A DNA stretch of 39,284 nucleotides from a virus. The stretch is taken from positions 1-39,284 of IMG/VR virus record IMGVR_UViG_3300045988_101290. One strand, written 5' to 3'. Position 1 is the stretch's first letter, and each line of letters opens with the position of its first letter. Below the pieces are notes generated by a model. It worked only from the letters and a program-made list of their open reading frames with translations. It made no database searches and was not told the DNA's origin. Shown one piece after another: positions 4,831-29,338 of the stretch. The position numbers and the translations under genes are program-made.

Positions 4831-7800
4831 ATGAGAAAATTGTCAAATGCATTCAAAGAACAACAGAATAATGGAGTGGCAAAGTACCTGAAATACATAG
4901 ACATCACCTTGACAGATGGAACGGAGCTGCATCTTACTAATGATGATCTGTGGAATAACGGATTCAAACTGGAAGATGCAGTATCTTCCGGAACGGAATT
5001 CGAAATTGGTTCAGTAATAGTAAACCAGTGCACAATCAACATCAACAACATTGAAAACGAATTTTCAGGCTATGCATTCGAAGGGGCGGAAGTTACATGT
5101 TATGTAGGACTTCGGATATCGCCGTCAGGACTGGAAGAAACGAAGACTATTCCATGGAAAGACATAGATGGAACATCGATACTCGATGTAAATGGAACAG
5201 AAATATTGTTAGAATACGATGACGCTTACATAGAAAAGATCCGAATGTGCACGATGACAGTTGTAGATGCACCGTATCAAAATGACTCTATAATCAACCT
5301 GACGTGCCAGGATGATATGAGAAAATTTGACAAAAACTATAGCTGGAGCAGATTACAGTACCCAGCCACAAGAGCACAGATCATAAGAGATGCATGCGAT
5401 GTATGCGGAGTACAACTGCATACACAGATGTTCGACAACGATGACTATATCATATCTGAGCGGCCGGATGACGAGGGGCTTACATTCCGTCAAGTGTTGG
5501 CTTGGACGGCCCAAATCGGCTGTCAGTGGCTCAGATGCAATGAATACGGCGAGTTATGTGTTGGCTGGTACAACGAGAAAACTGAGGCGGAAGAAATATC
5601 ACAAACCAACGGATACACCATCAATCTTGAAAGCGTAGTGATAACCGGAATAAAGGTTACAGAGTACTTAGAAGCGTCTACGGAAGAAGATAAAGCCGGA
5701 ACCTATATGTATGGAAATGATGGATATGTCTTAGGAATAACCGGCAATAAATTAATACCAAAAGGCGCCGGCGATACAGTAGCTACTATGATTGGCCAAA
5801 AGTGCGTAGGCCTTACATTCCGTCCGTTCCAAGCAAACAGATACACGGATATTGCATATGAAGCGGGCGATCCTGTACTTGTGAGAGATAAAGACGGAAA
5901 ACTGCAAAGAAGTTACCTGACACAGGTGACAACCCAGCCTGGGCGTCTGCAGCAGATAGAATGCAATGCTAAAAGCGCAGAAAGAAACAGCAGCCAACGA
6001 TACAGCGCATCTACACAGGCCATAATAGCCGCAAGAAAAGCCGCAAAGAAGCAAGTTGAACATTATGATCAAAAAGTAGAACAAATTACAAAACTCATCG
6101 GCCAGGGATTCGGCATGTACATTACAGGGGTGAAACAGGACGATGGAAGCACCATCTACTACATGCATGACAAACCAAACCTGAAAGAATCGGGATATAC
6201 TTGCTACTGGACAACCAATGGAATTATCGCATCTCTGGACGGTGGGACTACATGGGCGATTGACCGGAACGGAAATGCTCTGTTCAATACCATTACAGCC
6301 AGAGGAATCAATGCGAACTGGATTAATACTGGAGAATTTAAGGTTACAGATAAAAACGGAAATGAAGTCTTCTACGTAAACTGCGACACGGGTATTGTAA
6401 GGATAAACGCACAAACAATTGCCATAACAGGACAATCGGTTGCGGACATAGCCAAAAAACAATTACAGAATTTTGTCGATGAGGTCTACAACATTGATAT
6501 TGAAAAGCTAAAAGAACAGATCAGCAATAAAATCGAAACGTGGACACAGGAAGACGATCCATCACTGGCATGGGGTAAAATCACGGAGATAGCATGGAGA
6601 GATGTAGACGGGCATCCAATCCTGGATGTGGACGGTAAAGAGATTATCGTAAAGTGTGAAGAAACCAAAGCGGAGCATGAAGGAGATCTTTGGTATAATC
6701 CGGTCACAAAAGAAAAATGGATATACCAATCGGGAAATTGGGTACCGGAGGACATTCCTGACAAAATTTTCAATGAAATAGACGGCAAATCTTCGATTTA
6801 TATCAATACACCGGTACCACCATATAACGAAGGGGACGTATATTTTACCGGATCCACGATACTTGTGTGCAAAACAGCGCGATCTGCAGGAGTATATAAT
6901 GCGGATGACTGGGGCAAAAAAGATGGATATACCGATGACAGTACGGTAAACGATTTCATAAAGAATACATACACTCCAAAGATTAACGATCTGCAAAGCC
7001 AGATAGATGGCAAACTTGAAAATTATTTTAAGGACTATGAACCAACGATGGACAATCTGCCAGCCAGTGAGTGGACAACGGAAGAGGATCGGCAAAAACA
7101 CAATGCAGACACGTTCTACTGGCTTTCTAAAAAAGCGACATACATATTCTGCAAAGTGGATGGAAAATGGCAATGGCTATTAGATAAAGATCCGGATATA
7201 CAGAAAGCGATGGAAGCAGCTGCAGCTGCACAAGATACTGCAGATGGGAAACGGACAACGTTTACCGAAACTCCAAAGCCACCATATGAGAAAGGAGATC
7301 TTTGGGCGCAGGGACCAGACGGAGATATGATGCGCTGTATTAAAGCGAGAGAGAGCGGAAATTATGCGGAATCAGATTGGGAAAAAGCCTCAAAATATAC
7401 AGATCTGACAGAAAAAGACTGCGAACTTATCGTTGACAAAAAGGCGAATGAGATAAGAATGAAGGCTGAAAAAATCATGTGGGAGTCTGACAACAGCAGC
7501 ATGTCTGAAGACGGAACATTGACTTGCATGAATGCCGTAATTAAGGGAGAAATAGAATCCCACAAAGAAATAGATGGCACAGAATTCTCATCTAAATTAG
7601 GCGAAGCGACATATTATTCATATGGATATGAAACAACAGCGGGCGCGTTTTTGGTGGAGAACAAATATAATGATAATGAAAAGGGAATTATCGTAATTTA
7701 TCCAGCTCCGAGAGAAAATATCTCTGCGGGAGCCGATGAATCGGTAAGCGAGATCTATACAAACAGAAATCTACAAATCGTAGCAAGAAAAGGGGAATCT

Positions 7801-8367
7801 GATTACTGGGGAGGCTTGGAAGTATTTGAGGGACACATATCTCTCATCGCTGGTTATAGAAATTCGTCTATGAATCCTATAGAAGTATGGAGTGATGGAA
7901 ACAACGAATATGGACAATTAAGAGGAACATGGAAACTGCCATCACATTTTACGGGGACATTAAGCGACACAACGACATCTGCCGCAAATGTATATATCGG
8001 ACCGACAGGAGATTCAAAACTTAGAAAAGTATCGTCGTCCAGCAAAAGATACAAACATGACATTACGGATATAGACAAAGAACTGAACCCAGATAGTTTA
8101 TACAACCTTCCGGTGAAATCTTATACATACAACACGGATTACATATCTGAAGAAGATACAAATTACAGAAAACGTATGATCGGCTTCATCGCTGAAGATG
8201 TAGATAAAATATATCCTAAAGCTTGCCAATACGATGCGGACGGGAAACCGGAAATGTGGAACAGCCAAATCATGATCCCGGCCATGATGAAACTAATCCA
8301 GGAACAAAACGAAAGAATACAGAAACTCGAAGAAAAAATGGCAGATCTCGAAGATGGAGGAAAATAA
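4831..8367 (+). CDS. tail-associated/tail fibre protein with C-terminal intramolecular chaperone (peptidase S74-like) domain
   Basis: 1178 aa. The N-terminus resembles the phage minor structural/tail endopeptidase N-region. It carries internal duplicated motifs (TPVPPYNEGDVYF.. / TPKPPYEKGDLWA..). The C-terminal ~111 aa (8032..8364), SSSSKRYKHDI...IGFIAEDV...MIPAMMKLIQEQNERIQKLE, is typical of auto-cleaving tail-spike chaperone domains. Confidence 0.8.
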   Translation: MRKLSNAFKEQQNNGVAKYLKYIDITLTDGTELHLTNDDLWNNGFKLEDAVSSGTEFEIGSVIVNQCTININNIENEFSGYAFEGAEVTCYVGLRISPSGLEETKTIPWKDIDGTSILDVNGTEILLEYDDAYIEKIRMCTMTVVDAPYQNDSIINLTCQDDMRKFDKNYSWSRLQYPATRAQIIRDACDVCGVQLHTQMFDNDDYIISERPDDEGLTFRQVLAWTAQIGCQWLRCNEYGELCVGWYNEKTEAEEISQTNGYTINLESVVITGIKVTEYLEASTEEDKAGTYMYGNDGYVLGITGNKLIPKGAGDTVATMIGQKCVGLTFRPFQANRYTDIAYEAGDPVLVRDKDGKLQRSYLTQVTTQPGRLQQIECNAKSAERNSSQRYSASTQAIIAARKAAKKQVEHYDQKVEQITKLIGQGFGMYITGVKQDDGSTIYYMHDKPNLKESGYTCYWTTNGIIASLDGGTTWAIDRNGNALFNTITARGINANWINTGEFKVTDKNGNEVFYVNCDTGIVRINAQTIAITGQSVADIAKKQLQNFVDEVYNIDIEKLKEQISNKIETWTQEDDPSLAWGKITEIAWRDVDGHPILDVDGKEIIVKCEETKAEHEGDLWYNPVTKEKWIYQSGNWVPEDIPDKIFNEIDGKSSIYINTPVPPYNEGDVYFTGSTILVCKTARSAGVYNADDWGKKDGYTDDSTVNDFIKNTYTPKINDLQSQIDGKLENYFKDYEPTMDNLPASEWTTEEDRQKHNADTFYWLSKKATYIFCKVDGKWQWLLDKDPDIQKAMEAAAAAQDTADGKRTTFTETPKPPYEKGDLWAQGPDGDMMRCIKARESGNYAESDWEKASKYTDLTEKDCELIVDKKANEIRMKAEKIMWESDNSSMSEDGTLTCMNAVIKGEIESHKEIDGTEFSSKLGEATYYSYGYETTAGAFLVENKYNDNEKGIIVIYPAPRENISAGADESVSEIYTNRNLQIVARKGESDYWGGLEVFEGHISLIAGYRNSSMNPIEVWSDGNNEYGQLRGTWKLPSHFTGTLSDTTTSAANVYIGPTGDSKLRKVSSSSKRYKHDITDIDKELNPDSLYNLPVKSYTYNTDYISEEDTNYRKRMIGFIAEDVDKIYPKACQYDADGKPEMWNSQIMIPAMMKLIQEQNERIQKLEEKMADLEDGGK

Positions 8368-8368
8368 T

Positions 8369-9118
8369 ATGAGTGATGAAAACATTATTGATGTTGATCA
8401 GAATGAAACAGATACCTGTGAAGAAATTACTGATACGGACACGATATCCGGAGAAGACAAAAGCGAAAACATATCTACAAACGAAGCAGCAGGTACAACG
8501 GAGGATATCGATGCTGATTACAGCATTGATGAAGAGCCGGGAGAATCCAGCGAAAATACCTCTTGTTCGGAAGCAAATGAGGCCACAACCGTAAGCGGAG
8601 CAACGGCAAGCCAAGTTGCAGAAACCGCCGGAAGTAAAAGATGGAATGAGTATACAAGCAGCACAGATCTTGACGATACTGACGAACTTATGATACTGGA
8701 TACGTCTGCGAAAGCCAACAAAAGGACATTACTTTCGAAGCTGGCAGATTATGTATTAGGTAAACTTGCAGACAAAGTGTTTGCGAAATTAGAGACGCAG
8801 AATAAGACAGTTATCGGTGCGCTTAATGAATTAAATAGCAAGCAGTCGAAGACCATCTCGGTATCAAATGTGACCGACATACAAACATTAGTAAACAGTG
8901 CTATGGGAGGCACGAACATTCTGTTTCACTTAGCTGGTGCTGGGTATACCGGGAATGATCTGCCTAAAGATACAAAATATGGATATGGATCCGGAATAAT
9001 TTTTTACCGAAATGCTGGATCGTGTAAAATAGTATTAATTCCGGAAGGATCAAAGCCAGTCTGGAAAATGTCTGATTGGACAAAATGGAGAGATTTCGCA
9101 AATAATATTGTGGATTAA
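8369..9118 (+). CDS. receptor-binding / tail fibre protein: constant N-part (to 8842) plus exchangeable 92-aa tip
   Basis: GGAGGA RBS 7 nt upstream of the ATG at 8369. Contains the fibre-like motif TVIGALNELNSK. The tip shares motifs with the minus-strand cassettes at 11034..12188. Confidence 0.6.
   Translation: MSDENIIDVDQNETDTCEEITDTDTISGEDKSENISTNEAAGTTEDIDADYSIDEEPGESSENTSCSEANEATTVSGATASQVAETAGSKRWNEYTSSTDLDDTDELMILDTSAKANKRTLLSKLADYVLGKLADKVFAKLETQNKTVIGALNELNSKQSKTISVSNVTDIQTLVNSAMGGTNILFHLAGAGYTGNDLPKDTKYGYGSGIIFYRNAGSCKIVLIPEGSKPVWKMSDWTKWRDFANNIVD
8833..8842 (+). repeat. core AAATAGCAAG (AAT AGC AAG = N S K) in the expressed tail-fibre gene; candidate crossover site
   Basis: The same 10-mer occurs four times on the opposite strand (11349, 11632, 11897, 12180). 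TTAAATAGCAAG (12 nt) is shared with two of them. Confidence 0.6.
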
Positions 9119-9130
9119 TTTGTAGACGAT

Positions 9131-9150
9131 TCTTGGTCTTCCCATTTAAT
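9131..9150. repeat. left arm of a perfect 20-bp inverted repeat (TCTTGGTCTTCCCATTTAAT)
   Basis: Exact reverse complement of 10985..11004. Starts 12 nt after the stop of 8369..9118. Confidence 0.9.
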
Positions 9151-9194
9151 ACAGGAAGAAACATGAAAAAGGAGAAAAATATGGAGATTAGAGC

Positions 9195-9219
9195 AAGACC
9201 TTAGCAGGTCTTATTTTTA
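9195..9219 (+). terminator. rho-independent terminator between tail fibre gene and lysis cassette
   Basis: AAGACCT tagc AGGTCTT stem (7 bp) followed by a TATTTTTAT tract. Confidence 0.6.
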
Positions 9220-9246
9220 TACGATGAAAATACGGAAAGGACACAT

Positions 9247-9546
9247 ATGATCAAATTTTTATCAGAAAATTGGGCATTGCTTTCGTTCACAGTATCAGCT
9301 ATCGCATACATATATTATCAGGTGATAGCTATGCGAAAAGGAATACGTGCACTACTAAGAGCGGATCTGATACGGCTCTACAACAAGTATCATGACGATC
9401 ACGGATATTGCCCGTTGTACGTCAAACAGTCATTAGAAGATGAGTATAAGCAGTACCACACACTGAAAGGGAATGGTGTAGGTACGCAAATGTATAATGC
9501 GCTCATGGCATTACCGACAGAACCACAACATGAAAGAGAGGAATAA
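9247..9546 (+). CDS. N-terminally membrane-anchored protein, first gene of lysis cassette
   Basis: 99 aa with one N-terminal TM segment (WALLSFTVSAIAYIYYQVIAM), immediately upstream of the holin. Confidence 0.5.
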   Translation: MIKFLSENWALLSFTVSAIAYIYYQVIAMRKGIRALLRADLIRLYNKYHDDHGYCPLYVKQSLEDEYKQYHTLKGNGVGTQMYNALMALPTEPQHEREE

Positions 9547-9548
9547 TT

Positions 9549-9782
9549 ATGTTTAAAAATTGTGTATTTAAGGTATCGGTAGATACTAAAAAATGGATGA
9601 AGAAAGCAGGAATCAGAGCAACCAAAACTGTAGCACAGACTGCAGTAGCAACGATTGGAACAGCAACGGCACTTGGACAGGTGGATGCAAAGCTTGTAAT
9701 TTCAGCATCAGTGCTGGCCGGAATCCTGTCCTTGCTGACAAGTGTGGCTGGATTACCGGAATGTAACACAGAGGACGAATAA
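9549..9782 (+). CDS. holin
   Basis: 77 aa with the motif IRATKTVAQTAVATIGTA... and two hydrophobic segments. Directly precedes the endolysin. Confidence 0.65.
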   Translation: MFKNCVFKVSVDTKKWMKKAGIRATKTVAQTAVATIGTATALGQVDAKLVISASVLAGILSLLTSVAGLPECNTEDE

Positions 9783-9800
9783 TCGTCATCGTATTATTTA

Positions 9801-9816
9801 TGTGCGACGTCGCACA
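9801..9816. repeat. 16-bp perfect palindrome TGTGCGACGTCGCACA (parS-like site S1)
   Basis: Intergenic, ending at the endolysin RBS. Member of a 5-copy family (20271, 22805, 28144, 31004). Confidence 0.7.
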
Positions 9817-9830
9817 GGAAGGAGATCAAA

Positions 9831-10934
9831 ATGGCATTAAACGGAATAGATATAAGTAATCATCAGAAAGGACTCAATCTGAAGGATATAACTTGCGACT
9901 TTGTAATCTGTAAGGCTACGGAGGGAACAACCTTCGTAGATAAATATTGTGACGGTTTCATGCAACAGGCTATGAAACTTGGCAAAAAAGTAGGCGTGTA
10001 TCATTTTGCGAGCGGCAAAACAACCGGAAAAGCTGAAGCGGATTTCTTTTTGAAGAATGTACAGGGATATATTGGAAGAGCAATCTTGATCTTGGATTGG
10101 GAAGGAGACGCAGTAAAGAAAGGCGTAGGATATGCAAAAGAATTCCTGGATCGCGTGCTGGAGAAGACGGGAATCAAACCTATGTTATACAGCTACAACA
10201 ATTGCATCAATGCTTATGACTGGTCAGCAGTCAAAAACGCAGACTATGGCCTTTGGAACGCTGGCTACTACAATGGATATACAGAAATGGGATACACTCC
10301 GAAAGCACCTCTGAAAGGAGGACTTGGAGCCTGGGGAAGCTGTGCGATGTATCAGTATACTTCAAGTGGGAAATTAGCAGGTTGGTCTGGCCATCTCGAT
10401 TTAGATGTATTCTATGGAGACGCAGCTGCATGGGACAAATACGCTGGCGGTTCGGCCGGAGCCGGAACATCTATTGCAAAACCAGCACCCGCACCAATTC
10501 CTGCAGTAAATCCAACGAATCAGAGCTTGAAAAATGCACAGATCCATATTAATAACTTTACGGGCGCTGGAATTCCTGAAGATGGAAAGAACGGTCCGAA
10601 GACACGCAAAGGATTAATTATGGCATTACAGACTGCTTGCAATATGGATTACAATTCTGGTTTGACCGTAGACGGAAAAATCGGAGCGAAGACTAATGCT
10701 GCGCGTGACCTCCATTATGTAAAACGTGGAGAGAAGCAGTATCTTGTTACATTCGTTGAAATCGGACTTACAGCACTTGGATATTATAGCGGAGCAGTAG
10801 AAGCGCCAGGAATTTTCGGCGGTGGGTTGGAAACAGCAGTAGATAAATTCCAGAATGACACCAGTCTCAACAACGACAAAGTAGCCGGAAGGAATGTTAT
10901 GGATATGATCCTTAGAAAAATGGGATGTATTTAA
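9831..10934 (+). CDS. endolysin: GH25 muramidase domain plus C-terminal peptidoglycan-binding repeats
   Basis: N-terminus NGIDISNHQ...DFVICKATEG...VGVYHFA is typical of GH25. The C-terminus carries PG_binding_1-like repeats (DGKNGPKTRKGL, VDGKIGAKTNAA). Confidence 0.9.
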   Translation: MALNGIDISNHQKGLNLKDITCDFVICKATEGTTFVDKYCDGFMQQAMKLGKKVGVYHFASGKTTGKAEADFFLKNVQGYIGRAILILDWEGDAVKKGVGYAKEFLDRVLEKTGIKPMLYSYNNCINAYDWSAVKNADYGLWNAGYYNGYTEMGYTPKAPLKGGLGAWGSCAMYQYTSSGKLAGWSGHLDLDVFYGDAAAWDKYAGGSAGAGTSIAKPAPAPIPAVNPTNQSLKNAQIHINNFTGAGIPEDGKNGPKTRKGLIMALQTACNMDYNSGLTVDGKIGAKTNAARDLHYVKRGEKQYLVTFVEIGLTALGYYSGAVEAPGIFGGGLETAVDKFQNDTSLNNDKVAGRNVMDMILRKMGCI

Positions 10935-10948
10935 ATTGAGATTAACGT

Positions 10949-10984
10949 GAAGTAACAGGGGGAAATTCTCCGCCCTGTTACTTC
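10949..10984. terminator. strong 12-bp-stem hairpin, bidirectional terminator candidate
   Basis: GAAGTAACAGGG...CCCTGTTACTTC lies between the convergent endolysin and the minus-strand block. It has no clear T-run. Confidence 0.55.
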
Positions 10985-11004
10985 ATTAAATGGGAAGACC
11001 AAGA
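10985..11004. repeat. right arm of the perfect 20-bp inverted repeat
   Basis: ATTAAATGGGAAGACCAAGA is the reverse complement of 9131..9150. It lies 29 nt beyond the stop of cassette B1 in that cassette's coding direction. Confidence 0.9.
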
Positions 11005-11033
11005 TTTATTCAATAGCTTCAAATTACTAAAGA

Positions 11034-11357
11034 TTAAACAATCGCTTTCACAGATAAACCTTTGTCTAAAAATACAATTCGGTAGGTGCCCCAACCGCCA
11101 GCGAATCTTGGAATAGTTATAGTGCCGTTTTTACCTCCAGTAGCACCTATTGCATTTGACGATACATACGCTTGTGCTGTCGAAACATCTGTGTCGCTAA
11201 ACGATATACAAATCGGTTGAGCAGCCTCCAATTGACTACTAATTAGAAGAAGTGCAACTACAGTTCTACTTCTTGTAATCCCAGAGAATTGCAGCTTTCG
11301 CTCAATGTTACTTTGATCAACATAAGCCGAATTTATTTCAAGTGCTTTCTTGCTATT
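11034..11357 (-). other. silent tail-fibre tip cassette B1 (NSK + 104 codons + stop)
   Basis: Part of track ORF 11034..11411, whose start is TTG with no RBS. It begins at the core AAT AGC AAG and is beta-rich. Confidence 0.45.
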
Positions 11358-11642
11358 TTGTTTAAGAAATTTTTGAAAGAATTCCACGTTCGATTGAATA
11401 TCGAATATCAAGTTTCATACCATATCTATATAATACTATCAGTCCGTATGTACCATTAATATATCTATATCCAACGGCAAGATATCTTGATTCGGCTATA
11501 AAATTTTTAAAGAACGTTCCTTCTTTCGGAAATCTGTTCTTAGTCACTGCATCCTTTACACATGCATCAAGTCCACCAAGCGCTTCATATTCCGGGTCTC
11601 GATAATGTATTTCCGAAGTATCAATCTGAGCCTTGCTATTTA
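11349..11642. repeat. direct repeat copy 1 (294 bp; core-A1-core)
   Basis: Manual alignment to 11897..12190 gives 20 substitutions and no indels, with a period of 548 bp. Confidence 0.9.
11362..11640 (-). other. silent tail-fibre tip cassette A1
   Basis: Part of track ORF 11362..11667 (GTG start, no RBS). Begins at TTA AAT AGC AAG. Contains EALGG and NRFPKEGTFF motifs that resemble the expressed tip. Confidence 0.45.
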
Positions 11643-11905
11643 ACCTCACAAGTAAAATCACTTGCACTGATTATTGACGCATAACTCCAATTGCTTAGTT
11701 TGACCTCAAATCTACCGTTTGCATATTTGATACTACCTTCTCCCACGCTTGAAATCTGAGTTGACAAAGAAGCGAACGCATAAAAATATGCTGTGTTATA
11801 ATCTCCAAAAGCCATGAAAGAAAAATGACTTGTGTCTTTTGGGATAACACATATAGTGTCTTTATCGTTTGTACTTACCTTTGCGGTAAAAAATGCCTTG
11901 CTATT
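11636..11905 (-). other. silent tail-fibre tip cassette B2
   Basis: Part of track ORF 11636..11959 (TTG start, no RBS). Contains VIPKDTSHFSFMAFG, compared with LPKDTKYGYGSG in the expressed tip. Its stop TAG lies inside the next core. Confidence 0.45.
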
Positions 11906-12190
11906 TTGTTTAAGAAATTTTTGAAAAAATTCCACTTTCGATTGAATATCGACTATCAAGTTTCAGACCATATCTATATAATACTATTAGTCCGTATGTA
12001 CCATTAACATATCTATATCCAACGGCAAGATATCTCGAACCGGCTATAAAACTTTTAAAGAACGTTCCTTCTTTCGGAAATCTGTTCTTAGTCACTGCAT
12101 CCTTTACACATTCATCAACTCCACCAAGAGCATGATATTCCGAGTCTTGATAATATATTACTGAAGTATCAATCTGAGCCTTGCTATTTA
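11897..12190. repeat. direct repeat copy 2 (294 bp; core-A2-core)
   Basis: See copy 1. The two copies share a ~58-nt block of complete identity (TGTGTAAAGGATGCAGTGACTAAGAACAG...). Confidence 0.9.
11910..12188 (-). other. silent tail-fibre tip cassette A2 (paralogue of A1)
   Basis: The conserved part of track ORF 11910..12350. The remaining 5' part of that ORF is antisense to the miaB fragment and its promoter. Confidence 0.45.
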
Positions 12191-12220
12191 AAACACAATA
12201 GCTGCTGATCAGAATAAATC

Positions 12221-12249
12221 TTGAAAAACTTGTAATACTAACGTATAAT
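12221..12249 (+). promoter_or_regulatory. sigma-A-type promoter TTGAAA-17-TATAAT driving the miaB fragment
   Basis: -35 at 12221..12226, a 17-nt spacer, and -10 at 12244..12249, which is 37 nt upstream of the ATG at 12287. Confidence 0.6.
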
Positions 12250-12286
12250 ATTGTAACGCCATTAATGAGAGAAAGGAATTGCAATA

Positions 12287-12496
12287 ATGTATACAAACAA
12301 CGAAGAATTCGAAAAGATGTTAGAAACAATTGATATAGATAAAGAACCACCAGCTGATGATACTGAAAGACAGTATTATTTTATCAAAAAAGCAAGGAAA
12401 TATGTAAAAGAGGAATCAGAGAAACTGGGCCGCCCATTATTCTTTGCTACCGTAACATTCGGTTGTCAGATGAACCCGGTATCCGTGAATTATTAA
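12287..12496 (+). pseudogene. miaB: 5' fragment of tRNA methylthiotransferase miaB (first ~63 codons), predicted to be completed by the host gene after integration
   Basis: ...ERQYYFIKKARKYV...GRPLFFATVTFGCQMN matches the N-terminal extension and first cluster cysteine (GCQMN) of clostridial-type MiaB. The frame then diverges (PVSVNY) and stops. Confidence 0.6.
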
Positions 12497-12516
12497 GCAT
12501 TCAATATGAAACATAC

Positions 12517-12552
12517 AAAAGCCCTGGAAACATTGGATTTCCGGGGCTTTTT
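12517..12552. terminator. bidirectional rho-independent terminator
   Basis: AAAA GCCCTGGAAA cattgga TTTCCGGGGC TTTTT lies between the miaB fragment and the 3' end of the integrase gene. Confidence 0.7.
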
Positions 12553-14244
12553 CTATCTGTACAATAATGTGTGCGTTAATCCGTTTTTAAAAACGATCTC
12601 TGCAATACGCTTATCCAGAACAACGATGTGATCAACGATAGAATTGACAAATGCTTTCATAGATTCTTCATCCAATGCAGCAAGTCTGGAATAGTCTATA
12701 TAGTCACCACTGTTGATCTTGTGCGAGATAAGGAATTGAGATGCGGATTTAAGGAAGGCTGCCTGATCAACATTCTCGGAAATAGAAGAGGACTCTAAAC
12801 CCTTGATGCTATTTTCCAGCTTTATTCGGTCAACCTCCAGCTTTGACTTCATCTCAAGAAATTCTTTTTCATCCATTCCATCGTCGTCAAAGAGATATGC
12901 TTTCTTTAGCCGCTCCAGAGCACGATCCGTCCGCTGGAGCTTCTCTTTCAATTCCGTCGTTTTACTCTCATCAGTAGCACCACTGGATATAGGCTTACCG
13001 GACAGCAGCTCTGATCCGGAACGTCCAAACAGTAGATCAAGAGTATCCTGAAGACTGGAAGCAGAGATACCGACCACATCGGAAAAAGAAACGTGGGAGA
13101 GAATGACCCGCTCCAGGGATTCACAGTCTTTGATAAACCTTCGGCTCTTTGATGCATCGACCATTGCGGCTATATAATTAAGCACAAATGGACCAATCCT
13201 GACGTCGCTGACATTCAGGTTATCACAGTTCTTTTTCTGATATTTCCCGGTGCAGGCGTAAGAGGACGGCCGGAAGCCATCACCTTTGCGGCTGTCTTTG
13301 CCTTTTACCTGATATCCGGAGCCACACTTTCCGCAGATCATTAACCCGGCAAACACATTACATCTTTTCCGGATTGGATGGAAGACAGAAGTGTTTCGGT
13401 TTTGACTGTTTGCATCCATCCGTCGGTTAACTTCGTCCCATATATTGGGATCAATGAGCGGCGGGAAGACACCTTTGATGTAGATGACCTCATCATCGGA
13501 TTTCTTCTTTCCTCTGGCGCTCTCGCGGTAATTATACCGGTAATCGCCTTTGTTGATCGGATTCCGTAAAAAGTCCGCGACTGTCTTCGAAGTCCATTCC
13601 CCACCTCGTTTGGTAGGAATATTATGAGAATTGTTATAATCGCAGATAGTAACGGATGATCCGCCGTCCAGATACATCTGATACATAGCTTTGGCATAAG
13701 GAGCTTCTTTCTTTGAATGGACAGGACACTTCTTCTCGGCATCCCAATCCCACCCGTAAGGAACTCTTGCACCATTCCATTGTTTGTTCTGTGCACGTCC
13801 GATCATTACGTCTTTAACACGCTCAGACGTCAATTTACGCTCCAATTCGGCGAACACTAGTATAATCTTAAGGATAGCCTCACCGATGGCGCTAGAGGTG
13901 TCAAATTGTTCATTCAGTGATATGAACGTAACATTGTTGTATTTGAAATCATCGTACATGAGAGAGAAGTCCACAAGGTTTCTTGTAATCCGGTCTATCT
14001 TATATACGATCACGTGAGAGACCTGGCCAGATTTTACTTTCTCCATCATTCGCTCGAATGCAGGACGTTTCGTATTCTTACCGGACCGGCCTGCATCCTC
14101 AAATACCTCAATTCGCTTTTTATTAATGTGCAGCACGTGTTCGCAGTAGGCTCGCAACTCTTTCTTTTGAAATGGGAGAGAGTCCTTGTCGACCTGATAA
14201 CCAGTACTTACGCGGACATACAATGCTACTATTTTCTCGTCCAT
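12553..14244 (-). CDS. large serine recombinase (integrase)
   Basis: N-terminal resolvase domain (VALYVRVSTGYQ...SL..Q), recombinase domain, Cys-rich zinc ribbon and C-terminal coiled coil. Start taken at MDEKIV (ATG 14244), 8 nt after AAAGGA. Confidence 0.92.
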   Translation of the reverse strand: MDEKIVALYVRVSTGYQVDKDSLPFQKKELRAYCEHVLHINKKRIEVFEDAGRSGKNTKRPAFERMMEKVKSGQVSHVIVYKIDRITRNLVDFSLMYDDFKYNNVTFISLNEQFDTSSAIGEAILKIILVFAELERKLTSERVKDVMIGRAQNKQWNGARVPYGWDWDAEKKCPVHSKKEAPYAKAMYQMYLDGGSSVTICDYNNSHNIPTKRGGEWTSKTVADFLRNPINKGDYRYNYRESARGKKKSDDEVIYIKGVFPPLIDPNIWDEVNRRMDANSQNRNTSVFHPIRKRCNVFAGLMICGKCGSGYQVKGKDSRKGDGFRPSSYACTGKYQKKNCDNLNVSDVRIGPFVLNYIAAMVDASKSRRFIKDCESLERVILSHVSFSDVVGISASSLQDTLDLLFGRSGSELLSGKPISSGATDESKTTELKEKLQRTDRALERLKKAYLFDDDGMDEKEFLEMKSKLEVDRIKLENSIKGLESSSISENVDQAAFLKSASQFLISHKINSGDYIDYSRLAALDEESMKAFVNSIVDHIVVLDKRIAEIVFKNGLTHTLLYR

Positions 14245-14406
14245 AAATATCATCCTTTCCGTAAAAATGAGTATAAAAAATACACCTATACGGTGCTGAA
14301 AATTTATGGTACAATATCATTGCCGATGAATTATTGTACGTGCTCAGCACTGTATAGTATTTATCAAAAGGTCTCGGTGTTGGTAGCACCGGGGCTTTTT
14401 ATATTA

Positions 14407-26961: not shown

Positions 26962-27657
26962 ATGAGTTTACAAGAATGGGCAAAAAATGAAGTTGAAATC
27001 GCATGCAAAAGAGAAAATCCGGATAGAAAAGAAGGCGAATTTGATTATGGATGCGCTTGCTACGAAAGTGCATTAAAGGCATTTGAGAGCTTATGCGAAG
27101 ATGGTCACAGTGGTATGAGTATCGGATTCACAAAACAGATTTTGAATAGACTGATCGATGGAAAGCCACTGACTCCGATAGAAGATACAGAGGAAATGTG
27201 GAAAAGACCATGGACAGATAAGAAAGGAAAACAATATCAGTGTTCGAGAATGAGTAGCTTGTTTAAAACAGTAACTCCGAATGGAGAAATAAAGTATTCA
27301 GACATTAATAGGTGTTACTGTGTTAATCGCAATCATCCTAATTATGGATACCACAATGGGTTTATCAGAAGTATATATGATGCGATGTATCCGATCGCGA
27401 TGCCATACGCACCGGCGGATAAACCGGACAAAATAGTTTGTGATGAGTTACTCACAGATCCTAAAAATGGAGATTATGATACAAAAGCAATAATTTACAT
27501 AGAAAAACCGGATGGGAAGAAAGTGAAAATAAACAGATATTTTAAAGAATCCGAAGAATCATTTAAGGAAATATCATGGTTAGAATATCAAATCCGCAGA
27601 TACAAAGACTGGAGAAGGAGGAAGTGGTTAGGAAATGACGAGGAAAGACATTCTTAA
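26962..27657 (+). CDS. hypothetical protein
   Basis: 231 aa with GGAGAG RBS. Confidence 0.6.
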   Translation: MSLQEWAKNEVEIACKRENPDRKEGEFDYGCACYESALKAFESLCEDGHSGMSIGFTKQILNRLIDGKPLTPIEDTEEMWKRPWTDKKGKQYQCSRMSSLFKTVTPNGEIKYSDINRCYCVNRNHPNYGYHNGFIRSIYDAMYPIAMPYAPADKPDKIVCDELLTDPKNGDYDTKAIIYIEKPDGKKVKINRYFKESEESFKEISWLEYQIRRYKDWRRRKWLGNDEERHS

Positions 27658-28300: not shown

Positions 28301-29338
28301 ATGTATAATACCAATATTAAAGCGGAAGTTATTAATAATGTCATTTTCCGGATGTCTCAGTATGTAGACAGAACAACTCTGGACATCCTGCAGAAGATAC
28401 TGGAAGAACAACTGGTTGCGGTAAACATGGAAGAGATTACCACACTCCCAGCAGAGTTAAAAGTATCTTACGAAGAGCAGAACCGGTACTACATCGGTCT
28501 TATGATGATCAAAAAGAAAAATCTCCGGCAGGTCACAAAGAACCAGTACAGAGATGCTGCTACGAGATTAGCAACAGCGCTGAATAAACCATTGAATAAA
28601 ATTGATGAGATTGACATCGATTATTATTTGCACTGGTATTCGGAACGATCTGGAAAGAAAGGCAATAAGAATACAGCAGCAACCGTAAATAATGAGAGAC
28701 GGTACCTGTCTGCCTTCTTCACATGGATGCGGAAAGAACACTTTATAACTTTCAACCCAGTGGAGAATACGGAAGCACTGAAAGAAGTGAGAAAGCCGAT
28801 TGACTACTTCCGGCCAGCAGAGATGGAAGAGTTAAGGGAAGGCTGTGAATCCAAACGCGACCGTGCCATTATTGAAGTGTTCCGCAGTACCGGAGCAAGA
28901 ATCGGAGAGATTGCGCCACTGAACCGGGAAGACATTGACTGGAGTACAGGAGATATCATGATCCTGAGTGAAAAGAGCGAACGCTATAGAGTAATCTATC
29001 TGGATGAGGTGGCAAGGTTCCATCTAAAGAGATACCTCGACACCCGTACAGATGATAATCCGGCACTGTTCGTTGCTCAGAGGAAACCTTTTGCGAGACT
29101 TTCCGTCAATGGATTAAGGGACGTTATCAAGCGGATCGGAAAGAGAGAAGGTATGTCATGCAGGGTATATCCGCACAAGATGCGTAAAACGCTCGGCATG
29201 AATCTCAAGAACCGTGGAGCAGATATTGGTATTATACAAGAAATCATGGGACATGCAAGTCCGGAAGTAACAGCAAGATACTATGCAGAATCCACACCAG
29301 AAACCTTACGAAGCGTCAGAATCAGGACGTCGGCGTAA
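28301..29338 (+). CDS. tyrosine recombinase (second recombinase; candidate invertase/resolvase)
   Basis: Catalytic signature is present: STGARIGE (Arg), YPHKMRKT (His-x-x-Arg) and MGHASPEVTARYY (His...Tyr). AAGGAGGG RBS. Confidence 0.85.
   Translation: MYNTNIKAEVINNVIFRMSQYVDRTTLDILQKILEEQLVAVNMEEITTLPAELKVSYEEQNRYYIGLMMIKKKNLRQVTKNQYRDAATRLATALNKPLNKIDEIDIDYYLHWYSERSGKKGNKNTAATVNNERRYLSAFFTWMRKEHFITFNPVENTEALKEVRKPIDYFRPAEMEELREGCESKRDRAIIEVFRSTGARIGEIAPLNREDIDWSTGDIMILSEKSERYRVIYLDEVARFHLKRYLDTRTDDNPALFVAQRKPFARLSVNGLRDVIKRIGKREGMSCRVYPHKMRKTLGMNLKNRGADIGIIQEIMGHASPEVTARYYAESTPETLRSVRIRTSA

Follow-up and report, generated by a model that had tools for sequence, protein, structure and literature searches.

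How can a phage exchange the tips of its tail fibres by inverting DNA and still keep its lysis genes readable, when those genes lie within the DNA that inverts? This question is raised by a viral DNA of 39,284 bp (IMG/VR record IMGVR_UViG_3300045988_101290, positions 1 to 39,284; hereafter the window), in which a perfect 20-bp inverted repeat brackets the lysis cassette, and shorter sites that could switch the tip of a tail-fibre gene lie on either side of it. The short sites are here called S and the two copies of the 20-mer L. With a probability of about 0.72, the 20-mer pair is a second site class within a tail-fibre-tip shufflon, one that lets the lysis genes turn independently of the tips. 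The locus as a whole would then be a multiple-inversion system for the C-terminal tip of the tail-fibre/receptor-binding protein of a temperate gut phage.

The expressed tip (receptor-binding) gene (8354..9118, plus strand, 254 aa), which follows a gene for a 1178-aa tail protein (4831-8367), consists of a constant part (8354-8842), ending in ...ELNSK, and the variable tip E (8843-9118). At the junction of the two, in the codons for ...ELNSK, lies the forward S site TTAAATAGCAAG (8831..8842, plus strand). Beyond the lysis genes, four silent cassettes are found on the minus strand, each headed by an S site: B1 (11034..11360, CAAAATAGCAAG at 11349-11360), A1 (11362..11643, TTAAATAGCAAG at 11632-11643), B2 (11636..11908, CAAAATAGCAAG at 11897-11908) and A2 (11910..12191, TTAAATAGCAAG at 12180-12191). 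All four can be fused in frame to the constant part, giving predicted proteins of 267, 252, 249 and 252 aa, respectively. When site direction is defined as AAAT to AAG, the five S sites (one forward, four inverted) and two L sites in 8831-12191 follow one another as S> at 8831, <L at 9131, the lysis genes, L> at 10985, and <S at 11349, 11632, 11897 and 12180. Three or more short sites in both orientations and alternative in-frame C-terminal segments are among the defining marks of a shufflon, and both are present in the window. A search with the constant part returned 45 protein clusters in which it is at least 91% identical to that of the window, and the 25 sequences that were read, with constant parts at least 94% identical to that of the window, contained at least 20 unrelated tips, joined directly after ELNSK (ELNSN in two).

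The central module between the L arms (9151..10984, plus strand) is made up of a leader, which holds a mini open reading frame (ORF) encoding MEIRARP* (9181-9204) that overlaps a terminator-like hairpin (9195-9212, followed by a T run), then genes for a 99-aa protein (9247-9546), an r1t-type holin (9549-9782) and a GH25 + PG_binding_1 endolysin (9831-10934), and finally a 13-bp-stem hairpin (10948-10960 / 10973-10985) that abuts the right L arm. Inspection of the cassette revealed no convincing promoter-like site within it, so that the lysis genes plausibly rely on read-through from the late operon and their orientation therefore matters. Since the S sites sit on opposite sides of the lysis genes, every S × S inversion would flip them.

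The left L site (9131..9150, plus strand) reads TCTTGGTCTTCCCATTTAAT outward from the tip, and the right L site (10985..11004, minus strand) is its exact reverse complement; the TCTTGGTCTTCCCATTTAAT pair is the only perfect inverted repeat of at least 18 bp in the whole window. Extended without gaps, the repeat reaches 27 nt at 89% identity, the homology of the 7 added nt being unconvincing. The analytic chance expectation for a 20-bp pair is about (39284^2/2)/4^20 = 7e-4, and two copies with three or fewer mismatches were found in none of 100 dinucleotide shuffles of the window. The left copy begins 12 nt past the stop of the expressed tip gene, while the right copy follows cassette B1 in the coding direction of B1 and, in that sense, begins 29 nt past its stop (11034-11036). 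A first-pass annotation of this DNA had described the repeat, the confinement of the bracket to the lysis cassette, the 12-nt and 29-nt distances, a chance expectation near 1e-3 and a likeness of the 20-mer to the 12-nt switch core, and each of these observations was reproduced here.

This likeness amounts to 10 of 12 positions, both for the L core AAATGGGAAG, which lies within the 20-mer, compared with the S site AAATAGCAAG, and for the 20-mer segment CTTCCCATTTAA compared with CTTGCTATTTAA, the reverse complement of the S core, so that the two run in opposite directions. From the background rate, an S-like match of 10/12 in a given 20-mer is estimated to arise by chance at about 1e-3. The outer shape of the two sites is alike and the central bases differ (AAAT-GGG-AAG in L vs AAAT-AGC-AAG in S). 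At L, a block of 13-20 nt is conserved with both flanks variable, and at S sites 10-12 nt are conserved; the arrangement of Rci/sfx-type asymmetric sites, a conserved core with one conserved arm beside a variable one, is recognisable here.

Evidence that DNA has been exchanged at the 20-mer itself comes from relatives of the window. Exact-pattern scans returned 12 viral contigs and 77 metagenome contigs, and after about 35 Veillonella contigs, the matches in genome collections and a few other chance matches were set aside, about 45 related gut-phage contigs were kept. In each of them a terminal tip cassette, read in its coding direction, is followed by the 20-mer, which abuts an end of the lysis module; it always runs from the tip into the site, and paired copies are always inverted, never the mixture of direct and inverted copies that the first-pass annotation had named as evidence against a switch. 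When 30 different combinations of flanks are compared, the 20-mer is 100% conserved at positions 1-4 and 6-18, vs 33-83% for the 40 nt on either side. These combinations are drawn from 11 tip-side and 10 inner-side flank classes, and 31 quartets of classes pass the four-gamete test: E-lead1, E-end1, B1-end1 and B1-lead1 all occur, as do X-lead1 and X-end1. In the window, tip E is next to the 5' leader of the lysis module and tip B1 is next to its 3' end; elsewhere E is found at the 3' end (L053, L012 and L064) and B1 at the leader (L083), and X occurs at the leader (L005) as well as at the 3' end (L061). Since an S × S inversion cannot part a terminal tip from the module end next to it, these exchanges took place inside the 20-mer. 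Linked variants confine the crossover to positions 6-18 (GTCTTCCCATTTA in the left L site of the window): variant G5A always stays with the tip flank, a change of AT to GC at positions 19-20 stays with the inner flank (recombinase-3'), and the left site of L061 is TAACAG followed by TCTTCCCATTTAAT, with only ...GTCTTCCCATTTAAT kept. Within the lineage of the window, the lysis module keeps one orientation and terminal tips E, X and B1 are found now to one side of it and now to the other, an arrangement for which S × S inversions alone are insufficient.

The two kinds of site appear to be kept apart in nature. A first set of loci contained 109 S cores and 68 L cores, with no S/L hybrids in context, and a second set contained 353 S cores and 69 L cores, with hybrid cores at 1-5 each vs a control mean of 3.8, which is the background level. 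These counts suggest that S and L are two classes that never recombine together, as judged by a test that is population-genomic and not biochemical. Recombination of S with L, which would flip single tips, was considered as a further route and was dropped on the same background-level counts.

In most relatives the L pair brackets a recombinase gene, and the lysis cassette is a passenger in this central slot. In L084, L086, L011, L002, L004 and L034, both are present, with a gene for a 333-aa tyrosine recombinase following the endolysin gene inside the bracket. This protein has Phage_integrase and SAM_4 domains and no arm-binding domain, and its best family matches in Pfam and NCBIfam, which are below the cut-offs, are XerA/C/D-like. 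When the in-bracket recombinase was used as a query, 80 viral loci were returned, 72 of them with both flanks. Their recombinase gene is the point of convergence of S-type arrays (AAATAG[CT]AA[GC]) from left and right, and a single side can have as many as 12 sites. An exact inverted repeat brackets the gene in 67/72 loci, at 79-112 nt before its start and 122-134 nt after its stop. At least six L cores occur among these loci, sorted by recombinase clade (TTCCCATTT in about 33 loci, ACTGCGGATTTAAT in 11, ACTCCCTATTTCAT in 7, CTCCGATTT in 6, CTCCTGTTTA in 6 and CCTCCCATTTCAT in 4), and each is identical in both arms, with the S core AAATAG[CT]AA[GC] unchanged throughout; in L099 even a one-nt insertion is common to both arms. 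Such arm-to-arm covariation is predicted of partner sites that recombine with each other. The recombinase-centred loci that were examined encode one recombinase only, and the invertase is most likely this Xer-like tyrosine recombinase rather than the serine recombinase next to the cassettes.

Products of the expected reactions can be seen in closely related genomes. Loci L149 and L159, which were recovered from separate samples, have 100% identity in their common parts (one 336-nt piece, 99.4%). L159 is arranged as A / B - L - REC> - L' - C and L149 as A / C' - L - REC> - L' - B', so that the 1211-bp L-to-L unit has the same orientation relative to flank A in both, and each tip has moved to the opposite side and the opposite strand. 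Both breakpoints fall in 10-bp cores, those of S and L, within AAATAGTAAG and CTTCCCATTT, the latter being the sole 10 bp common to both L sites, and the product requires one S × S plus one L × L' inversion. In a second pair, L155 and L158, cassettes D and F have moved from right to left across an unflipped recombinase unit, with the outer flanks collinear. A search for swapped flanks over 38 two-L loci gave L149/L159 as the single clean pair, the other cases being partial. The first-pass annotation had proposed that two inversions together amount to a cassette exchange across a fixed lysis module; the exchange across a fixed module is supported by L149/L159, by L155/L158 and by tips E, X and B1 on either side, but the pair turned out not to be specific to lysis genes.

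Both orientations of the central module are represented. Tips are placed alike in L086 and L084 (B1 expressed; E and A2 silent), but the central module is oppositely oriented. Judged from its gene order, L084 would be a natural intermediate state, in which the lysis genes are antiparallel to the expressed fibre gene; with a frameshift in its in-bracket recombinase gene, this contig (2976-3940) represents either an intermediate that has become frozen or an error in sequencing. The comparison of cassette orientation among relatives for which the first-pass annotation had called gave about 24 distinct contigs with lysis-containing modules co-oriented with the tail genes and one opposed (L084). 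Among recombinase-centred loci, the central gene is co-oriented with the tail gene in 40 (the canonical state) and flipped in 12. Contig ends near L sites were also considered as a sign of heterogeneity within samples and were not used, several contigs breaking in or after the shufflon in a pattern that is too untidy. Three contigs of the window lineage (L206, L207 and L208, 36-42 kb) end in or just after the cassette region, L207 at 86 nt past the tip gene; heterogeneity of this region within a sample would cause assemblies to break at such points.

In the mechanism proposed here, recombination of the S site in the expressed gene with any inverted S site would bring a new tip into frame and would invert everything between the two, the central module included. 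L would recombine with its inverted partner L', and not with S, and the L × L' inversion would turn the central module alone. One S × S plus one L × L' inversion would therefore leave tips exchanged across a module that still faces the same way as the rest of the late operon. Ancestrally, the central module would have been the recombinase gene, which was joined by lysis genes in some lineages and replaced by them in the window. Comparison of genomes shows the architecture, the two discrete site classes, exchange exactly at the L core, covariation of the L arms and the natural occurrence of both orientations. Beyond these, one tyrosine recombinase presumably acts on both site classes, the central bases are presumably the strand-exchange overlap that makes S and L incompatible, in this phage the inversion would be driven by REC2 (a second tyrosine recombinase, described below) or by a recombinase supplied in trans, and co-orientation of the lysis genes would be the selected benefit here. 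The lysis ON/OFF switch that the first-pass annotation had assigned to the L inversion alone would be no more than a logical consequence.

Several points weigh against this reading. The L bracket of the window holds no recombinase, and REC2 (28301..29338, plus strand, 345 aa), an Xer-like tyrosine recombinase that likewise lacks an arm-binding domain, lies 17 kb from the L pair and is only 36% identical, over its full length, to the in-bracket enzyme of relatives; the surroundings of REC2 and of its homologues gave neither S nor L sites. REC2 is a candidate invertase acting in trans, but it could be that it does not recognise S and L sites, and that the shufflon of the window is frozen or served in trans. 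Inversion at 9131/11004 in this particular genome is argued from homology to its relatives. The incompatibility of S and L through their central bases is likewise an analogy, to lox/FRT spacer variants and the sfx core. At least five different lysis modules occur on L pairs in prophages of the window lineage, which shows that genomes exchange DNA with one another at L too, and not every reassortment at L is an intramolecular inversion. In the lead3-type loci L018, L080 and L006, the one L site present has nothing beyond it but the vestige of an inverted S site, so that an L site can persist without a partner. Finally, the strong bias toward the canonical state may come from selection, or from assemblies in which the majority form prevails, and need not mean that re-inversion is efficient.

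Four other explanations were weighed, of which three, the passive joint, the binding site and the RNA element, each leave the 10-bp isogenic breakpoints, the arm covariation, or both unaccounted for. The one that survives best, although it is unlikely, is that the 20-mer is a passive mosaic joint, a conserved linker for homologous recombination between co-infecting phages or prophages, with no inversion within a genome. The joining of at least five lysis modules and 11 tip flanks via the same 20-mer does require exchange between genomes, and single-copy L sites would fit such a linker as well, but a joint offers no reason for 13-20 bp to stay invariant between unrelated flanks, nor for the L core to be a near-copy of the S site. 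The L149/L159 exchange, moreover, falls within a 10-bp common core, far below the usual length for homologous recombination, and L arms covary across recombinase clades at fixed distances from the recombinase gene.

Somewhat less credible is a role in which L sites bind the recombinase or a regulator without strand exchange, to organise the synapse, such that inversion and not deletion results, or to autoregulate the enclosed genes. Such an element would suit the S-like core and the fixed distances of L sites on both sides of the recombinase gene, and it would speak to the question, raised by Mavrich et al. (PMC6109161), of how an invertase without an arm-binding domain avoids deletions. It does not account for recombinant L junctions in otherwise identical genomes, where the tip flank of one L site is joined to the inner flank of the other, nor for wide reassortment of flanks exactly at L, and an operator would keep a consensus, having no need of identical arms that differ between clades. 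Binding could, however, be a role that L sites have besides recombination.

A function at the RNA level is improbable. The arms, which are perfectly complementary over 20 nt, might pair in the late transcript as a duplex that serves as an RNase III site, by which the lysis mRNA would be excised, or as a stabiliser that protects this mRNA, or the 20-mer, which always lies just 3' of the terminal tip in coding orientation, might be an element of the 3' untranslated region of the tip mRNA. However, the arms of relatives have only 9-14 nt in common, which is too short for RNase III, brackets around the recombinase alone enclose a gene with its own promoter-like leader, single-copy L sites exist, internal cassettes lack the 20-mer, and an Rfam scan of 8300-12600 gave no match. 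The first-pass annotation had offered an RNase III site and a scar of module exchange as alternatives to inversion, and both fail to explain that flanks reassort at an invariant 20-mer and that isogenic genomes are rearranged there. A chance repeat or an assembly artefact can be dismissed, given an expectation of about 7e-4, its absence from all 100 shuffles, and the same 20-mer in the same context in about 45 independent phage contigs.

If the second-site-class reading is right, a large tip shufflon can span a lysis cassette without half of the genomes being lysis-defective at a given time, which would also answer in part how invertases that lack an arm-binding domain organise their reactions, in a widespread uncultured family of about 150 related contigs from human-gut and other metagenomes. 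Whether the locus is in full a natural two-channel device, in which one Xer-like enzyme, acting on incompatible S and L sites, both shuffles tips and independently re-inverts a "safe slot", is about an even bet. If so, the slot carries cargo whose orientation matters, namely the recombinase gene, whole lysis cassettes and even an anti-defence gene, and the alternative states of the locus would include lysis-off prophages.

Designs of this kind are known from engineered DNA. In flip-excision (FLEx) or double-floxed inverted orientation (DIO) switches with lox/lox2272, and in recombinase-mediated cassette exchange (RMCE), one recombinase serves two site classes that differ only in their central bases and recombine only with their own kind, and nested inverted pairs of the FLEx type control the orientation of the segment they enclose. 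Those systems are synthetic, whereas the window is natural, with both reactions reversible inversions and with heterospecificity deduced from the absence of hybrids. If the two-channel reading holds, the window would be a natural counterpart of FLEx/RMCE designs and a ready source of orthogonal shufflon sites; on the second-site-class reading, site pairs that are orthogonal by nature and served by a single shufflon invertase would become available to synthetic biology. In a recent toolkit study, orthogonal shufflon site pairs were sought and none was found to be fully orthogonal (10.1101/2024.10.25.620183).

Shufflons of phage tail fibres and shufflons driven by tyrosine recombinases have both been described (Rci/sfx, Rin, BV01-like). 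The R64 / IncI shufflon (Rci, sfx) is like the window in its several short asymmetric sites in both orientations and its tyrosine-family recombinase, and inversion there fuses alternative C-terminal segments to the constant pilV, the counterpart here being the fibre tip. Conservation in sfx is confined to 19 bp, made up of the 7-bp core and a single 12-bp arm, with the other arm variable (10.1101/2024.10.25.620183), and the conserved 20-bp block of the window, set between two variable flanks, is similar in appearance. R64 differs further in having one compatible sfx family and no second, mutually exclusive class, in the position of rci outside the shufflon, in enclosing no unrelated genes, and in being a plasmid and not a phage.

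Another similar system is the Rin shufflon of Bifidobacterium prophages, where a phage-encoded Xer-like tyrosine invertase without an arm-binding domain (Mavrich et al. 2018, PMC6109161) acts on short asymmetric sites (11-bp rix) located 5' of each variable C-terminus of a receptor-binding protein with a constant N-terminal gene. In the Rin system, however, rin flanks the cassette array, whereas in relatives of the window two convergent arrays surround the recombinase; the Rin array encloses neither lysis genes nor any others, a single site class has been described, the host phylum is different, and the rix site TTCCCTAACCC differs from both AAATAGCAAG and AAATGGGAAG of the window. The inversion systems Gin (Mu), Cin (P1) and Min (p15B) also swap tail-fibre C-termini and thereby change host range, Min with several segments, but they use small serine invertases, 26-bp dyad sites and a Fis-bound enhancer, and their invertible DNA holds fibre genes only; the sole serine recombinase of the window has 566 aa and is the integrase, whose attP is located in a miaB-like gene. 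A BV01-like Phocaeicola phage has an active multi-cassette tail-fibre shufflon, flanked by its recombinase and with directional 10-bp motifs (PMC13596623). This shufflon is 1.7 kb long with three cassettes and the motif TGGGAGAACT, and neither a central module nor a second site class has been reported for it. In the published work searched and in cultured-phage records, no shufflon was found with convergent arrays split by a module that has a private inverted pair, none with two discrete site classes, and none with essential lysis genes within the invertible DNA. A megablast search of GenBank phages with 8300-12300 gave no match, and protein searches of cultured phages gave nothing above 42% identity for the recombinase or 50% for the tip protein.

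Integration of the phage is served by a different enzyme. The large serine recombinase (12553..14253, minus strand, 566 aa), with Recombinase and Zn_ribbon_recom domains, adjoins a 69-aa ORF (12287-12496, plus strand), which is the 5' end (63 aa) of a host miaB-like radical-SAM methylthiotransferase gene, with identity to the host stopping at about 12475. The full 487-aa miaB-like gene is found in the prophage contigs L209, L210, L214, L215 and L218, next to cmpB and mutS. To judge from these contigs, integration takes place in the miaB-like gene, the 5' end of which is then replaced by that of the phage; attP is located at about 12475, inside the fragment 12287-12496, and since this insertion site adjoins the serine recombinase, the latter is the integrase; it is probably no part of the shufflon. 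The same enzyme was considered as the main invertase candidate and rejected, as it serves as integrase and the sites in relatives are tied to a tyrosine recombinase. All prophages of the window lineage that were found have an L pair around a lysis module, with the lysis genes running with the tail genes. One of these lysis modules carries a Tad2-like gene, which in L218 (7903-8397) is located between the holin and an amidase endolysin.

Two other roles proposed for the 20-mer were discarded. As a promoter, its TTGGTC and TTTAAT elements would be spaced by only 6 nt, and the two copies would fire in opposite directions relative to the lysis genes. Veillonella was considered as host, with the 20-mer as attB, but in the roughly 35 contigs with an exact copy (L016, L019, L022 and about 30 other loci; L090-L095) both flanks are one conserved chromosomal sequence and none joins the 20-mer to phage DNA; these matches, from many metagenomes and MAGs, were judged to be chance. 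A few are expected for a 20-mer in a collection of this size, and the true attachment site is in the miaB-like gene. A further L-like sequence is present in the last codons of the endolysin gene (..KMGCI*), where AAATGGGATG (10918-10927) matches the L core at 9/10 positions in the same direction as the right L site, and this match is also found in the 89%-identical endolysin of L097 and L100.

In the lysis leader, the mini-ORF just inside the left L site (region 9181-9222) has a good ribosome-binding site, and the start of its peptide (MEIRARP / MKIRARP) is kept, together with the hairpin, in the otherwise differing leaders of the lead1, lead2 and lead4 types (L004, L010, L002, L086). The mini-ORF and hairpin may form an attenuator that controls entry into the lysis genes. 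In lead3-type loci, a partly degenerate inverted S site lies within about 230 nt after the single L site (L018 2883-3131, L080 4180-4427, L006, L069) and heads a 19-codon ORF, with the lysis genes outside; this looks like a decayed shufflon.

REC2 is 100% identical in a near-identical 39-kb viral contig that holds L005. Its gene contains a 16-bp perfect inverted repeat (TATAATACCAATAT core), with one copy at the gene start (28302-28317) and one near the 3' end (29223-29238), which among the inverted repeats of the window is exceeded in length only by the L pair; about 0.2 repeats of this kind would be expected by chance. Just upstream, a Tad3-like protein (Thoeris inhibitor) is encoded at 26962-27657. 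Lastly, prophages L214 and L215, from a pair of samples in a single study, match except for an additional cassette (about 520 nt) that only one of them has, on the expressed side, between S sites in direct repeat; this suggests that deletion or insertion between direct S sites takes place besides inversion.

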